Positions 7,910 to 59,083 of a DNA stretch of 59,083 nucleotides are shown here, in pieces. The stretch is taken from the NCBI GenBank assembly GCA_002725285.1, contig PBRC01000030.1, forward strand, positions 22,117 to 81,199. The letters run 5' to 3'. This stretch comes from Gammaproteobacteria bacterium. Lineage in GTDB: Bacteria > Pseudomonadota > Gammaproteobacteria > Pseudomonadales > Azotimanducaceae. How positions within the stretch are numbered: position 1 is the stretch's first letter; each line of letters begins with the position of its first letter. A program made the translations under genes and the position numbers. A model generated the notes under the pieces. The model was not told the DNA's origin, ran no database searches, and saw only the letters and a list, made by a program, of their open reading frames with translations.

Positions 7910-9274
7910 ATGAAAACTGTTAGTGAAACGGCAAGAGAAATCCCCGTAATTGCTGAGACCGATATTCTGGTAGTTGGCGGTGGTCCTGCAGGCCTTGCGG
8001 CGTCTTTATCTGCGGCACGGGAGGGTGTCGAGACGATGCTTGTTGAACGATATGGCTGTTTTGGTGGAACGATCACTCAGGTAGGTGTTGGTAGTATGTC
8101 ATGGTATCGCTCTGCCGACACGGTCGATGCTGAGGGCATAGGGATTGAGTTCGAAACCCGGGCGCAGGAGATGGGGGCCGCTCAAGGCCGACCCAGGAGC
8201 TCGAGAAAGGGTGGGGTACTACTGGACACGGAGATGTTCAAAGTCGTGGCCGACAAATTGGTACAGGAAGCTGACATCAGACCGCTATTGCATAGCAAAG
8301 TAGTAGACACCGTGATGGATGGCAACATGATTCAGGGTGTAGTTATTGAAAGCAAATCAGGCAGGCAGGCGATTCTGGCCAAACGGGTGATAGATGCAAG
8401 TGGTGACGCCGATATAGCAGCATATGCTGGTGCACCTTTCGAGAAACTCCCCAAAAACGAATTGATGGGTGTCACGGTCTTATTCAGTTGTGCGGGAGTT
8501 GAAAAAGGTGCCTTCTATGAATATCTGAAGGCAAACCCGGCAACCTATAGGGACTGGGGAGAGACCTGGGAGATTGAAACGAGCGGCAAGGAGGACAACC
8601 TTCGGACATCCTATATTGCAGAACCCTTTGACAGAGCCCGTAAGGAAGGATTGATTCCTGCTGATATGCCCATCGTTGGTTCCTGTGGGCCTGTCTCTGA
8701 GACTGGCGGGAGTATAACTCTGAACATGAACTACATGTTTGGATTTGACTCAACCGATGTCTTCGACCTTACCCGGGCAGAAATTGAAGGCAGAGAACAG
8801 GCAATGTATGCCATCAAGGCGCTGAAGGCGTATGTTCCCGGATTTGAGAAAGCAAAATTGAAAAACTTTGGTATGACTCTCGGCACCCGTGACTCCAGAA
8901 AGATCGTTGGGAGGACGAACCTGACTGCAACTCACGTGAGGGAGGAAGGCAGGTCAGATGAATCAATCGGGATATTCCCGGAGTTTATTGATGGCCATGG
9001 CGTTCTTGTTCTTCCGACGACGGGTCGCTATTTTCAGGTTCCACTTGGGGTTATTGTGCCGCAGAAAGTTGAAAACCTGCTAGTCGCAGGACGATGTGTT
9101 GCAGGAGACAAGATCGCCCACGCCGCAACGCGAAGCATGATGTGTTGTGCATTGACGGGGCAGGGTGCCGGTGTAACGGCCGCGTTGTCAATCAAAAATA
9201 ATGTTGCCAGTGGTTCTGCAAGCATCGGTGAGGTTCAGACTGCCCTGAAAAATCGGGGCGTGCGGATTGATTGA
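7910..9274 (+). CDS. FAD-dependent oxidoreductase
   Basis: DILVVGGGPAGLAASLSAAREG is a dinucleotide-binding fold motif. The C-terminal GRCVAGDKIAHAATRSM is typical of the FAD_oxidored family. GGGAGG is the RBS. Confidence 0.75.
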   Translation: MKTVSETAREIPVIAETDILVVGGGPAGLAASLSAAREGVETMLVERYGCFGGTITQVGVGSMSWYRSADTVDAEGIGIEFETRAQEMGAAQGRPRSSRKGGVLLDTEMFKVVADKLVQEADIRPLLHSKVVDTVMDGNMIQGVVIESKSGRQAILAKRVIDASGDADIAAYAGAPFEKLPKNELMGVTVLFSCAGVEKGAFYEYLKANPATYRDWGETWEIETSGKEDNLRTSYIAEPFDRARKEGLIPADMPIVGSCGPVSETGGSITLNMNYMFGFDSTDVFDLTRAEIEGREQAMYAIKALKAYVPGFEKAKLKNFGMTLGTRDSRKIVGRTNLTATHVREEGRSDESIGIFPEFIDGHGVLVLPTTGRYFQVPLGVIVPQKVENLLVAGRCVAGDKIAHAATRSMMCCALTGQGAGVTAALSIKNNVASGSASIGEVQTALKNRGVRID

Positions 9275-54622: not shown

Positions 54623-55150
54623 TTATTGGTGGGTCCGACTTGCGTCGGCGCTGCTAGCATACATTTTCGCTAGTGCCTTCATGACGATCGTGGATTGTTG
54701 CGGCGTTGCCGAGATCATTTGGTCGGGCCAGTTCTCACTGCCCAAATCCTCCAGTAGCGACAAGACATAGTTTTTGTTATCAATGGTGGTGAAATGACAG
54801 CAGGGGATGATGACACCGGGATCATTTACTTGCAGATTGAAGCAGACTTCCCTTTTTACCAGATGCTGAAGCGCTTCTGGTACAGAGGAGCCATCTGTAA
54901 ATTTGCCAACGAATGTGGTTGGCACATCCACTGTTTGCGAATATTGCACGGCAAATCGGTACAGACTACTGGTAAAGCCAACGTCTGCTGCAATCTGTTT
55001 CCAGTCGACACTTATCAGGCTGGTTTCTGGACCAATGGTATCACCACGCCTCAGGGTATCTGTTAACCAATCATTAGTGATGAATTCGGGGTTTATGGAA
55101 ATTGAGCTGGCATATTCTTGGTTTGGATAGAGGGGCTGTGAGTGCTTCAA
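54623..55150 (-). CDS. N-terminal lobe only of an APH/ecdysteroid-kinase-like phosphotransferase (probably truncated)
   Basis: NDWLTDTLRRGDTIGPETSLISVDWKQIAADVGFTSSLYRFAVQY..PTTFVGKF resembles the N-lobe of this kinase family. The ORF stops at 175 aa, right after LAKMYA, where the catalytic lobe should begin. The TTG start overlaps the upstream stop codon (TTGA). Confidence 0.4.
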   Translation of the reverse strand: MKHSQPLYPNQEYASSISINPEFITNDWLTDTLRRGDTIGPETSLISVDWKQIAADVGFTSSLYRFAVQYSQTVDVPTTFVGKFTDGSSVPEALQHLVKREVCFNLQVNDPGVIIPCCHFTTIDNKNYVLSLLEDLGSENWPDQMISATPQQSTIVMKALAKMYASSADASRTHQ

Positions 55151-56643
55151 GCAATCGCCAGACTACGCCGCAGTGATCTCCCGGACCTTGCGCCAGTATG
55201 TTCACCCTCGTTAATAACCTGTACGCCATTGACAAACAAATGATGAATCCCCTCTGGGTAATGGTTGGGGTCGGCAAACGTACCCTTGTCTACAATGGAA
55301 TTTTGATCAAACACCACCAGATCTGCAAAGGTGCCCTGGTGAAGTTCTCCTCGGTCTGTCAGGCCGAATTTCCTTGCAGAAAGTCCGGTCATTTTGTGGA
55401 TTGCCGTTTCCAGTTTAAACAAACCAAGATCACGAGAGTAGTGACCAAGAACACGTGCAAAAGACCCATAGAGCCGGGGATGTGGTTTACCTTCCAGGGT
55501 AGGTATGCCATCTGATCCGATCATTGTACTGGGATGCTGCATCACCGTCTGAACATCGTCTTCATCCATGCTGTGTAGTACAACGGTTGCACCCGGTTCT
55601 TGCGCCAGGATAGCCTCGGCCGTCTCCTGGGGGGATTGACCAAATGATGTCGCCAGCTCTGCGATGGATTGGCCTTCCCATTCCTGATGGCTTTCGGTGG
55701 AGGCCAATACAATTCCTTCGGCATCCATATCCCCCAGGCCACCACCTTCGCGATCAAGCCCGCCCTGTTGGATGGTTGCCGATAAGATGGTGCTGCCAGC
55801 AGTATAGGGATACTGATCGGCGTGCACATCAATATTACGCTGTTGGGCGTCCTCGATCAGTTTAAGCGACTCTTTAACCAGCCCCCAGCTTTTTCGGCCC
55901 GCAGCCTTATGATGTGAAATCTGAATTCCAACACCTGCAGATTGACCGATCTGAATTGCCTCCTCAAGGGATTGCAGGAGTTCCGTTCCTTCATTCCGCA
56001 TGTGGGTGGTGTACAGAGCCCCGGTGCCCTCCATAATTGAAGCGAGTTCAATCAGCTCATCAGTATCCGCGTGCCGACCCGGGTCATAGATAAGACCTGA
56101 CGACAGTCCAAGCACGCCAGCCTCAAGACCTTCCTGTAGAAGCTTTTTCATGTGCCCCATTTCATCTGCCGTGGGTGTTCGGGCTTCATTACCCATAACG
56201 GCCATTCTGATGGTGCCGTGACCAGCGAGTGCGCCGATGTTTATACTCGGGCTGTGACTGTCAATGTAGTTCAGGTAGCCGTTGTATCCAGACCAATCCG
56301 GTAGCACGGCATGAGGATGAAATGCTCGTGCCAGTAATGCTGCCTGGGGACAGGGAGCTGCTCCCATTCCACAGTTTCCGACGACACAGCTGGTGACACC
56401 ACCCATGGCTTTGAATGACATATCAGGATGGAGAATTGCGGCGAAATCATCATGAGTGTGAACATCAATAAATCCAGGGGCAACTGCCAGACCATTCAGA
56501 TCTATCTCCCTGTCACTATTGCCTGGCACAGTTCCGACGGAAGTAATTCTGTCTTTAGTGATGCCGATATCACCTTCGTAGGGAGCATTCCCCTTACCAT
56601 CAAAGATTTTTGCGTTACGAAGGACGAGTGTCTGGTGAGTCAT
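55147..56643 (-). CDS. D-aminoacylase (N-acyl-D-amino-acid deacylase) family amidohydrolase
   Basis: The N-terminus is LVLRNAKIFDG, followed by VAPGFIDVHTHDD and later ISHHKA. The length and the C-terminal beta-sandwich pattern (ADLVVFD) fit the family. Confidence 0.85.
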   Translation of the reverse strand: MTHQTLVLRNAKIFDGKGNAPYEGDIGITKDRITSVGTVPGNSDREIDLNGLAVAPGFIDVHTHDDFAAILHPDMSFKAMGGVTSCVVGNCGMGAAPCPQAALLARAFHPHAVLPDWSGYNGYLNYIDSHSPSINIGALAGHGTIRMAVMGNEARTPTADEMGHMKKLLQEGLEAGVLGLSSGLIYDPGRHADTDELIELASIMEGTGALYTTHMRNEGTELLQSLEEAIQIGQSAGVGIQISHHKAAGRKSWGLVKESLKLIEDAQQRNIDVHADQYPYTAGSTILSATIQQGGLDREGGGLGDMDAEGIVLASTESHQEWEGQSIAELATSFGQSPQETAEAILAQEPGATVVLHSMDEDDVQTVMQHPSTMIGSDGIPTLEGKPHPRLYGSFARVLGHYSRDLGLFKLETAIHKMTGLSARKFGLTDRGELHQGTFADLVVFDQNSIVDKGTFADPNHYPEGIHHLFVNGVQVINEGEHTGARSGRSLRRSLAIA

Positions 56644-56914
56644 GCCAAATTCTCTTTAAGGTCTTTTTCCATGCGCCATAGTAGTTGTCTCGATAGCGGG
56701 AGCGCAACTATGAGAATAACCAGATCTGTGATCAAAACGACGACTGGTTGTTGCACATCTGTCAATGAATGTGATCGTTCTGAAGTGATTGTTGGCTGTA
56801 AACAGGATAGCGACTCAAACAGCCCCGACGATTCAGTGGCGCTTCACTGAAAATCGTGGTTTATTCTTCCTAACGGTTTTAGCTATAGTTGCACGGAAGA
56901 AGAAGTAATAATAA

Positions 56915-57451
56915 ATGAAGCGCAGGGAGATCATCGCAGCATTGGGTGCATTTACGATTGGGATAAAACCCGTTCGAGGTGCAAAACCAGATCGGATCAA
57001 ACCACAAGTTGGTGATGTTCTGGTCCATGCCTTTGGTGAAAAGGCGGGCGTTGTGATTCAGTCTGATGATATTGAAACGGATCGTGTATTTGCTTTTCCA
57101 ATGTCACCTGAGGGCGTGGTTCGACGCGGTTCACTGCACAACCAGGTTACTTTGCTGCGACTGGATGAATCATTGATGTCCGTCAAAACAAAACGGCATG
57201 CAGCCGGGCCGATTCTCGCCGTATCCGCTGCCTGTACTCATACGGGTTGTGAAGTCAGCGGCTGGGAGCCTGAGACAAATGAACTCGTCTGCCCTTGCCA
57301 CGGATCTCGTTTTGATGTCCTCGATGCTTCCAGGGTTCTTCTGGGACCTGCTGCAAAGCCACTCGCGTTGCTGCCTATTGCGAATATCGAGGGGTCATTT
57401 CAGGTTACGGGGAAATTCTCCAGACGTGTGGGTCCTGAACCTGCCTTTTAG
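56915..57451 (+). CDS. Rieske [2Fe-2S] domain protein with a Tat-type signal
   Basis: CTHTGCEV-x15-CPCHGSRFD matches the CxH...CxxH Rieske motif. The N-terminus is MKRREIIAALGAFTIGIKPVRGA. Confidence 0.85.
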   Translation: MKRREIIAALGAFTIGIKPVRGAKPDRIKPQVGDVLVHAFGEKAGVVIQSDDIETDRVFAFPMSPEGVVRRGSLHNQVTLLRLDESLMSVKTKRHAAGPILAVSAACTHTGCEVSGWEPETNELVCPCHGSRFDVLDASRVLLGPAAKPLALLPIANIEGSFQVTGKFSRRVGPEPAF

Positions 57452-57479
57452 AACACTTATATACGATATGGGGGAACCT

Positions 57480-59083
57480 ATGAAAGTACTCTTAATCATT
57501 GCGGGCTTGTTGGCGGTTACCAGTATATTTGCTGCAGACTATTCGCCTGTCACAAGTGCAAGACTCGCAAACCCGGAACCAGAAAACTGGCTGATGTATC
57601 GGCGCACCTATGATTCGCACGGATACAGTCCACTGAAGGAGATTACCAGCCGAAATGTCAAGAAGTTAAAACCTCTATGGTCTTTTTCTACGGGTTTGCG
57701 AGAGGGTCATCAGTCGCCGCCTGTTGTAAATGGTGGTTTCATGTTTATTACCACACCGCACAACCACCTTCTGGCACTCAATGCAGAATCAGGTGAAATG
57801 CTCTGGCGATATATTCGCGAATTGCCGGAGGATCAGGTGCAGATGCATCCCACCAACCGGGGTGTTGGTTTGTATGGAGATCTGGTCTTCATGGCGACCG
57901 TAGACTGTTACGTCGTCGCACTCGATGCCACAACCGGTGAGGTTGTCTGGGAAACCGAAGTAGAAGACTATACCAACGGTTACTATATGACACTCGCACC
58001 CCTGGTGGCGGATGGTAATGTCATGGTAGGTGTTTCCGGCGGTGAGTTCGGTATTCGTGGTTTTGTCATGGCGCTGGATGCAAAGACGGGAAAACTGGCA
58101 TGGAAGACTTATACGATCCCGGCGCCGGGAGAGCCTGGCAGCAGTTCCTGGCCGGGTGATTCATGGAAAACCGGTGGTGTTCCTGTCTGGATTACCGGCT
58201 CCTATGACGTCGCAACCGGGTTAAGTTACTGGGGGACAGGTAACGGCGGTCCCTGGATGGGAGATACTCGTGGTGGCGATAATCTTTACGCCACCTCGGT
58301 GATGGCGTTGGATGTCAAAACCGGCGAGATCAGGGGACATCATCAATATCACTGGAACGATTCCTGGGACTGGGATGAAGTTTCCGCCCCGCTTCTGATT
58401 GATTTCAAGCGAGACGGAGAAACCATCAGTGGAATGATTCATCCTGCAAGAAACGGTTATCTGTGGTTTCTTGAAAGGCAAAGTAATGGCATCGGCTTCG
58501 TTGATGCGAAGCCTTATGTGAAGCAGGACGTTTTTACGTCGATTGATCCAAAGACCGGCAGACCCAGCTACGATGAGACTAAGAAACCGGGCACGGGTAA
58601 GGGGGCAACTTTTTGTCCATCCCACTGGGGTGGTAAAGATTGGCCACCTGCCGCATTCAGCCCAAAAACTCGACTGCTCTACATTCCAGCCAACGACAAT
58701 GTCTGCGCTTATATGATCGGTGAAGATGTGGAATACAGGCAAGGCCGTGAATTCATCGGGACAGACTGGCAGGCGTCAAATCTTGTATTGGCTGACGAGG
58801 CCAGCGATTATATTGGTGAGTTGCAGGCCTGGAATGTCGACACCGGTACGAAAGTCTGGAGCCGGAAATTCAAGAGTCAGAATTGGGGGCCTGTCCTCGC
58901 GACTGCAGGTAACCTGGTATTTATGGGTGGCACCAATGACCGAAAGTTCAGAGCATTTAATGCTAAGACCGGCAAGCTGCTCTGGGAGCAGCGGACCAAT
59001 TCCGGGATAACCGGCGTTCCTTCAACCTACGAAGTCGGTGGCAAGCAATATGTTGCCGTCCTGTCGGGCTGGGGGGTAGATGC
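57480..59083 (+). CDS. PQQ-dependent dehydrogenase, methanol/ethanol family (partial, runs off the window end)
   Basis: This frame is not in the supplied ORF track because no stop codon is reached. I translated it by hand: signal peptide MKVLLIIAGLLAVTSIFAA, then NWLMYRRTYDSHGYSPL, VSGGEFGIRGF, YWGTGNGGPW, HWNDSWDWDEV, CPSHWGGKDW, and VLSGWGVD at the edge. GGGGGA precedes ATG 57480. Confidence 0.85.
   Translation, partial: MKVLLIIAGLLAVTSIFAADYSPVTSARLANPEPENWLMYRRTYDSHGYSPLKEITSRNVKKLKPLWSFSTGLREGHQSPPVVNGGFMFITTPHNHLLALNAESGEMLWRYIRELPEDQVQMHPTNRGVGLYGDLVFMATVDCYVVALDATTGEVVWETEVEDYTNGYYMTLAPLVADGNVMVGVSGGEFGIRGFVMALDAKTGKLAWKTYTIPAPGEPGSSSWPGDSWKTGGVPVWITGSYDVATGLSYWGTGNGGPWMGDTRGGDNLYATSVMALDVKTGEIRGHHQYHWNDSWDWDEVSAPLLIDFKRDGETISGMIHPARNGYLWFLERQSNGIGFVDAKPYVKQDVFTSIDPKTGRPSYDETKKPGTGKGATFCPSHWGGKDWPPAAFSPKTRLLYIPANDNVCAYMIGEDVEYRQGREFIGTDWQASNLVLADEASDYIGELQAWNVDTGTKVWSRKFKSQNWGPVLATAGNLVFMGGTNDRKFRAFNAKTGKLLWEQRTNSGITGVPSTYEVGGKQYVAVLSGWGVD

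Follow-up and report, generated by a model that had tools for sequence, protein, structure and literature searches.

We analysed a 59,083-nt stretch of DNA from a Gammaproteobacteria bacterium (contig PBRC01000030.1, positions 22,117 to 81,199, forward strand; hereafter the window), which ends inside a gene for a pyrroloquinoline quinone (PQQ)-dependent dehydrogenase that is directly preceded by a gene for a Rieske [2Fe-2S] protein. An earlier note on this DNA had described the dehydrogenase as a methanol/ethanol-family quinoprotein having a lanthanide-type metal site while lacking the vicinal Cys-Cys disulfide ring of its family. It had overlooked the Rieske gene upstream, from which more can be learnt than from any other part of the locus. 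The features of the two genes and of their products are collected in Table 1.

Table 1. Features of the Rieske-PQQ gene pair at the end of the window. Coordinates are window positions; residues are numbered within each protein.
Feature	Position	Strand	Remarks
Gene for a 178-residue Rieske [2Fe-2S] protein of the type exported by twin-arginine translocation (TAT)	56915..57451	+	PF00355, 39 bits against a cut-off of 20.3
Twin-arginine R3-R4 of the predicted Rieske signal peptide MKRREIIAALGAF	56921..56926	+	RR followed by hydrophobic residues before the mature domain
Rieske box I, C107-T-H109-T-G-C112	57233..57250	+	C107, H109 and C112 invariant (n = 77)
Rieske box II, C126-P-C128-H129-G-S131	57290..57307	+	C126, C128, H129 and S131 invariant (n = 77)
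28-nt spacer between the Rieske and PQQ genes	57452..57479	+	GGGGGAA 5 nt before the ATG, a probable ribosome-binding site
PQQ dehydrogenase gene, codons 1-534 of 563	57480..59083	+	Cut by the end of the window
Predicted Sec-type signal peptide MKVLLIIAGLLAVTSIFAA, 19 residues	57480..57536	+	Assigned by eye: hydrophobic N-terminus without RR
Q121-M122-H123 at the place of the ring Cys-Cys-Asp	57840..57848	+	Alignments to PedH, SolV XoxF, 6DAM and ADH-IIB
E189, predicted metal ligand in the GGE motif	58044..58046	+	Invariant in 81/81; aligns with Glu of VSGGEFGVRG in SolV XoxF
N255, predicted metal ligand in the GTGN motif	58242..58244	+	Invariant in 81/81; aligns with Asn of GTSN/GTGN in XoxF and PedH
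D297-W298-D299, predicted catalytic Asp and lanthanide-type extra Asp	58368..58376	+	Invariant in 81/81

Translation of 57480-59081 (+) gives 534 codons without a stop, and the frame continues past the end of the window. The final 9 kb of the window match four public marine metagenome contigs at 99.8% identity, and the full gene, whose recovery the earlier note had advised, could be obtained from such near-identical sequence. The corresponding full-length protein in public assemblies, P0001, has 563 amino acids (aa) and differs from the window translation by a single mismatch (R/Q at aa 461), so 29 residues are absent from the window copy. Despite the truncation of the open reading frame (ORF), its product scores 562 bits against TIGR03075 (PQQ-dependent dehydrogenase, methanol/ethanol family; cut-off 480) and 268 bits against PF01011 (cut-off 26.7; Pfam PQQ, 1.9e-79), and it does not pass the membrane glucose/quinate dehydrogenase model TIGR03074 (196 bits, cut-off 833). 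Among solved structures it is closest to PedH of Pseudomonas putida, a lanthanide-dependent enzyme (6ZCV, E = 1e-101, or 7e-118 with a profile), with two XoxF enzymes next and then quinohaemoprotein alcohol dehydrogenases (ADHs). These matches lie well outside what chance would produce, and the family assignment made from the letters alone was correct. The public-database names of both the dehydrogenase and the Rieske protein are generic.

An AlphaFold2 model of P0001 has a mean predicted local distance difference test score (pLDDT) of 73 and a predicted template modelling score (pTM) of 0.79, with low confidence in the active-site loops. Searched with Foldseek, the model finds PedH as the best match, with a template modelling score (TM) of 0.83, and 30 PQQ dehydrogenase chains with TM 0.75-0.83; as modelled, the protein is an eight-bladed beta-propeller of the methanol/ethanol family that can be superposed on the solved members. 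Homology to the solved mature enzymes begins at about aa 20-30, and the N-terminus consists of the 19-residue signal peptide alone, with no N-terminal membrane domain. The dehydrogenase is therefore predicted from its sequence to be a secreted, periplasmic protein.

For the metal site we aligned the dehydrogenase with HMMER, using both the single sequence and a profile, to five solved enzymes, among them PedH, SolV XoxF, M. buryatense XoxF (6DAM) and ADH-IIB (1KV9), with results that agree. Conservation was read from an alignment of 81 sequences, comprising the window enzyme and the dehydrogenases of 80 related genome loci (63-83% identity). The motifs named in the earlier note lie in the translation at aa 120-128 (VQMHPTNRG), 185-194 (VSGGEFGIRG), 250-259 (YWGTGNGGPW) and 295-301 (SWDWDEV), and the last three do supply residues, E189, N255 and D297, that align with the ligand and catalytic residues of the solved enzymes. 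D297-W298-D299 is aligned with WDFD of PedH, WDYD of XoxF and WDFT of the Ca-dependent ADH-IIB, so that D299 is matched with the lanthanide-binding Asp in PedH and the two XoxFs and with the Thr (D-F-T) in 1KV9. The two Asp residues of the WDWD motif therefore occupy the catalytic and the lanthanide-binding positions, as had been proposed, and the metal site, made up of E189, N255, D297 and the extra D299, is predicted to be of the XoxF/PedH type.

The same invariant residues bear on whether the protein is an enzyme at all. It matches TIGR04528, the model for group A of the Acidobacteria 'empty quinoproteins', with 362 bits, and a propeller without cofactor or without catalysis would be akin to these proteins. 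This score falls far from the cut-off of 650, whereas TIGR03075 passes its own, and each metal and catalytic residue that we checked is present and invariant, which makes such a reading very improbable.

The lanthanide call itself hangs on a single residue, and the enzyme might instead use Ca2+, or be promiscuous for its metal, with the extra Asp as a trait of the clade. The membrane glucose dehydrogenase of E. coli (mGDH, Gcd) likewise has D466-M-D468 at the aligned positions (D466 and D468 pair with D297 and D299 in both MAFFT and BLASTP alignments), and we know of no evidence that this enzyme needs lanthanides. The D-x-D motif is moreover treated as an assumed indicator only in PMC11996626. 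Against Ca2+ use stand the constancy of D299 in all 81 sequences, the lanthanide-dependent PedH as closest solved relative, and the fact that all solved enzymes of the ADH/methanol dehydrogenase family with Asp at this position (PedH and the XoxFs) bind lanthanides while the Ca enzyme 1KV9 has Thr. We consider it doubtful that the enzyme uses Ca2+, a case that would in any event be compatible with the mechanism proposed below.

The ring, which lies over PQQ, is typical of methanol dehydrogenases and of type I/II ADHs, though not universal in the superfamily. At the ring position, the Cys-Cys pair of the reference enzymes faces either Q121-M122 or a gap and M122 (a one-residue deletion), depending on the reference. 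Across the clade the region reads Q-[M/L/F]-H-P-T-N-R-G-V, with Q121 found in 78 of the 81 sequences and H123 in all 80 that are aligned there. No vicinal Cys pair (CC) occurs in any of the 81 mature dehydrogenase sequences, so the loss of the ring noticed at VQMHPTNRG is not made good by a Cys pair elsewhere. The only invariant Cys residues are C379 and C409, which align with a separated Cys pair of SolV XoxF that we take, from methanol dehydrogenase structures, to be the distal structural disulfide of the family. A sequencing or assembly error could in principle mimic the loss of a Cys pair; nothing was found in favour of this, and it is excluded for practical purposes by the presence of Q-x-H-P-T-N-R-G in 80 independent genome loci and in the four near-identical contigs.

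In place of the ring, the enzyme has a residue that is matched in a different branch of the quinoproteins. H123 aligns with His262 of E. coli mGDH in both MAFFT L-INS-i and BLASTP alignments (QM-HPTNRGV against FQ-HVTCRGV), and at the ring position the alignment shows no Cys pair in Gcd. His262 of E. coli mGDH stands in for the disulfide ring, and the acceptor of that enzyme is ubiquinone, not cytochrome c. From the match of H123 to His262, the dehydrogenase would therefore join a metal site of the ADH/XoxF type with an mGDH-type cap over PQQ. The ring is reported to be indispensable if electrons are to pass efficiently to cytochrome c550 (Mennenga 2009, cited in PMC12997753), in line with the role in transfer to cytochrome c that the earlier note had given it, and a ring-less enzyme therefore plausibly uses another acceptor.

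The ring-less state is real, but it is less unusual than the earlier note had implied. A search of 1.8 billion representative proteins places the xHPTNRG / SWDWDE sequences in a distinct group, whose closest ring-bearing relatives (47-48% identity) carry VCCGMVNRG and TWDYDE. The ring is also absent in many further clades among the top 150 representatives, and the ring position is without a Cys pair in the solved 4CVB, 9M2C, 7WMD (DepA) and 22VI. Aylward and Santoro noted quinoproteins of marine Thaumarchaea in which D-x-D is kept but the Cys-Cys motif is missing (PMC7300363), and lanthanide-type PQQ dehydrogenases are reported to be ubiquitous and highly transcribed in the ocean (PMC11996626). 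The dehydrogenase thus belongs to a large ring-less clade of lanthanide type that has no name, and D-x-D without the ring has precedents. P0248, the closest relative to bear the ring, lacks a Rieske neighbour and is followed by a gene of SBP_bac_3, the family to which XoxJ belongs.

The gene upstream of the dehydrogenase encodes a protein whose nearest solved relative is the Rieske protein of Thermus thermophilus (1NYK, E = 1.4e-23 over aa 29-175), followed by actinobacterial QcrA domains and then by arsenite oxidase AioB. Its AlphaFold2 model has a pLDDT of 87.7 and a Foldseek TM of 0.87 to 1NYK. The four cluster ligands, the two disulfide Cys and Ser131 are constant in 77 Rieske sequences, and position 133 is Phe in 67 of them and Tyr in 10. 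On these grounds the product is assigned to the Rieske 2Fe-2S proteins of the respiratory, quinol-oxidising type. It does not score as a subunit of a bc1/b6f complex: the NCBIfam models for QcrA, PetC and bc1 are all far under their cut-offs (e.g. 93 against 275). By analogy with bc1 mutagenesis, Ser131 and Phe133 suggest a potential somewhat below +300 mV yet above that of PQQ. The RR motif is found in 75 of the 77 Rieske homologues, the exceptions being one sequence cut by a contig end and one with TRRQWL, and in none of the 81 PQQ dehydrogenases. With a TAT signal on the folded, cluster-bearing Rieske protein and a complementary Sec-type signal on the propeller, both proteins would therefore reside in the periplasm.

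The two genes are linked well beyond the window. In 76 of the 80 related loci the dehydrogenase gene is immediately preceded by a Rieske homologue encoded on the same strand, with a spacer of about 9-222 nt in 74 of these 76. The loci come from marine Pseudomonadales, Porticoccaceae, SAR86 and Pseudohongiella and also from Binatia, Bryobacterales, Rokubacteria and Myxococcota, and the more than 590 genome hits for the module are likewise mostly from the same four marine groups, with further hits in Binatia, Acidobacteria and Rokubacteria. The pairwise identities of the Rieske proteins and of the dehydrogenases diverge together (Mantel r = 0.88, a value reached by 0 of 999 permutations). Scanning 56500-57600 of the window revealed no terminator-like or promoter-like site. 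When the genes of the 80 loci were clustered into families, nothing beyond the Rieske-PQQ pair was conserved throughout, and neither a cytochrome b gene nor one for a small cytochrome c was seen beside the pair, rarer neighbour families not having been individually annotated. Nor does a cytochrome c or SBP_bac_3 gene adjoin the dehydrogenase in the window or recur as a conserved neighbour across the 80 loci, in contrast to the XoxF/ExaF/PedH enzymes, whose genes are accompanied by that of a dedicated c-type cytochrome (XoxG/PedF) and often by xoxJ. By comparison of the loci, the Rieske and PQQ genes form a conserved two-gene unit with the PQQ gene second.

We propose that this unit encodes a lanthanide-PQQ dehydrogenase that passes its electrons to a Rieske protein instead of a c-type cytochrome, and we put the probability of this reading at roughly 0.55. 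Respiratory Rieske proteins are quinol oxidants, and PQQH2, the reduced cofactor, is a quinol. In the proposed mechanism, the periplasmic enzyme would bind PQQ and a light lanthanide, and the Ln3+-PQQ site would oxidise an alcohol, aldehyde or sugar. The Rieske protein would then take the two electrons of PQQH2 one at a time, with no c-type cytochrome taking this part, and would hand them to the aerobic respiratory chain via a cytochrome c or an oxidase encoded outside the window. More speculatively, the exposed His ligand of the Rieske cluster may act on PQQH2 as it does on ubiquinol in bc1, with the missing ring giving it access. That the soluble periplasmic Rieske protein is the dedicated physiological oxidant of the dehydrogenase, working through this exposed His, and that the mGDH-like His which replaces the ring permits this, we advance only tentatively, at somewhat less than even odds.

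Several observations weigh against this proposal. The lanthanide dependence of the enzyme is predicted from one diagnostic residue, and the putative interaction and electron transfer between the two proteins are proposed from their genes. Where the earlier note had advised looking for pqqABCDE, lanthanide-uptake genes and xoxG/xoxJ, Pfam and NCBIfam searches of the 37 ORFs of the 59-kb window found none of them. Four of the 80 loci have no Rieske gene inside 10 kb. The relatives of the clade point the same way. P0242 (57% identity, LQVHPTNRG) is preceded by a gene for a 508-residue protein with SMP-30/gluconolactonase-like and cytochrome c domains (L085:2404-3930), which has a Q/D-rich linker and forms one chain with the dehydrogenase in the 1075-aa P0241, and P0256 (45% identity) is followed by a gene for a 126-residue cytochrome c. 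Since these more distant ring-less HPTN relatives have cytochrome c partners, loss of the ring predates the Rieske partner and does not require it, and ring-less enzymes can apparently use cytochrome c. The idea that a single event removed the ring and brought in the Rieske partner is rejected on the same ground.

These relatives give some weight to a different account, in which a c-type cytochrome encoded elsewhere is the acceptor, as in the ring-less sister clades, and the Rieske protein has another periplasmic redox task or acts further downstream. The HPTN sister clades linked or fused to cytochrome c domains, the loci that lack the Rieske gene, and a cytochrome c-PQQ fusion protein encoded by the next gene in the near-identical contigs all fit this account. 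It leaves unaddressed, however, why, across phyla, the two genes stay adjacent, on one strand and a short distance apart, and their products co-diverge, why a small cytochrome c gene is not conserved beside the pair, and why the Rieske gene has no cytochrome b or other evident partner nearby. We judge a cytochrome acceptor unlikely, though well worth keeping in view, and retain the Rieske protein as the preferred acceptor. As to the substrate, the SMP-30/gluconolactonase-like partner of the sister clade hints at sugar-to-lactone chemistry, and together with the mGDH-like His it provides a weak lead towards an aldose.

The known electron acceptors of quinoprotein dehydrogenases are c-type cytochromes, haem c domains, ubiquinone and cupredoxins. 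If the proposal is right, a Rieske acceptor would be a new electron exit route and a new acceptor class for quinoproteins, one that occurs both in abundant marine Gammaproteobacteria and in soil bacteria of several phyla, and nature would have provided a test of what the Cys-Cys ring does, a long-debated question. The link of the clade to respiration would also bear on marine carbon turnover and on rare-earth biology. We found no paper that ties a PQQ dehydrogenase to a Rieske acceptor, an earlier description in the subscription literature being possible. The novelty would lie in the conserved Rieske partner, potentially a new electron-transfer route, given that D-x-D without the ring is already precedented.

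The surroundings of the pair vary among the loci. Just past the point at which the window ends, near-identical contigs encode a 720-aa protein in which an N-terminal cytochrome c (CVACH at residue 54) is fused to a second ring-less PQQ propeller with W-D-L-D (L081:9598-11760; also in L082 and L084). In L083 the same dehydrogenase is followed by a 500-aa ORF (L083:11770-13272) that has no Pfam hit and by eye looks tyrosine recombinase-like near its C-terminus. The strains therefore differ exactly at the window end, possibly through insertion of a mobile element. A gene of the di-haem cytochrome c peroxidase/MauG family and genes for small YtkA-like proteins occur within a few kb of the pair in 23 of the 80 loci (for example L029:12308-13573 (-) and L023:13629-14090 (-)), and a MauG-family gene also lies beside the distant ring-less relative P0256 (L089:939-2810); this neighbour could be a further redox partner or mere conserved synteny.

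Two sequences have an irregular arrangement. L006, one of the four loci without a Rieske gene, has a duplicated fragment of the dehydrogenase N-terminus (8700-8906, aa 20-88, 64% identity) 1.1 kb upstream, which suggests a local rearrangement, and the Rieske homologue P0230 is probably located elsewhere in the same genome. P0288, which at first sight is a Rieske-PQQ fusion, was rejected as such: half a Rieske domain (to CTHTGC) is joined to about residue 163 of the dehydrogenase, and it looks like an assembly collapse or a deletion.

Within the window, two URO-D/MtaA-like methyltransferase ORFs flank a 'variant radical SAM' (S-adenosylmethionine) protein, NF045502 (35492-36610 (-), 39294-40682 (+) and 44929-46191 (-)), and these may form a gene set for methyl transfer or demethylation. 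The two radical-SAM ORFs of the window were considered as PqqE and rejected from their Pfam/NCBIfam matches. An ORF of 140 aa at 56428-56850 (+) is probably not a gene, having no family hit and overlapping the amidohydrolase at 55147-56643 (-). Elsewhere the window holds genes of ordinary heterotrophic metabolism, and scanning its full length for Rfam families and tRNAs gave no matches.

Among known systems, the dehydrogenase is most similar to enzymes of the PedH/ExaF type (6ZCV, 6ZCW), with which it shares 35% identity, a soluble periplasmic eight-bladed propeller and the same Glu, Asn, Asp and extra Asp. In PedH, however, the Cys-Cys ring is present (PcCDVINRG) and the electrons go to a c-type cytochrome, whereas the window enzyme has Q-M-H-PTNRG and an adjacent Rieske gene. 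The XoxF methanol dehydrogenases (4MAE, 6DAM, 6OC5) align with it in their W-D-x-D, GGE and GT(G/S)N contexts; they differ from it in having the ring, in an identity of only about 33%, and in being partnered by XoxG/XoxJ (PMC10875860), which are neither in the window nor conserved in the loci. E. coli mGDH agrees in the missing Cys pair, in His262 as the equivalent of H123 and in D466/D468 as those of D297/D299. It is nevertheless only 27% identical, has Asn355 and Thr424 where the window enzyme keeps the Glu and Asn ligands of the ADH family, and carries an N-terminal membrane domain that the window enzyme lacks. The Pseudogluconobacter ADH 4CVB, DepA (7WMD), 9M2C and 22VI are likewise soluble type-I-like propellers without the vicinal Cys pair, but they belong to another clade (about 28-31% identity), in which the metal site and the loop cysteines are different (TCQFSGFGC, WDSE) and a His is missing from the ring position, and none of them is reported to have a Rieske partner, in contrast to the Rieske gene beside the window enzyme.

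On the Rieske side of the pair, arsenite oxidase AioAB is also a periplasmic oxidoreductase whose electrons exit via a TAT-exported Rieske subunit of the respiratory type. Its catalytic subunit is a molybdopterin protein and its subunits are co-exported, whereas the window enzyme has its own Sec-type signal and a PQQ/metal site. The Rieske protein of Thermus thermophilus (1NYK, 3FOU) shares 33% identity and the same cluster boxes, including the disulfide Cys, with the window Rieske protein; the Thermus protein belongs, as a subunit, to a bc-type complex, whereas the Rieske gene of the window has no cytochrome b gene adjacent to it and is linked instead to that of a PQQ dehydrogenase.

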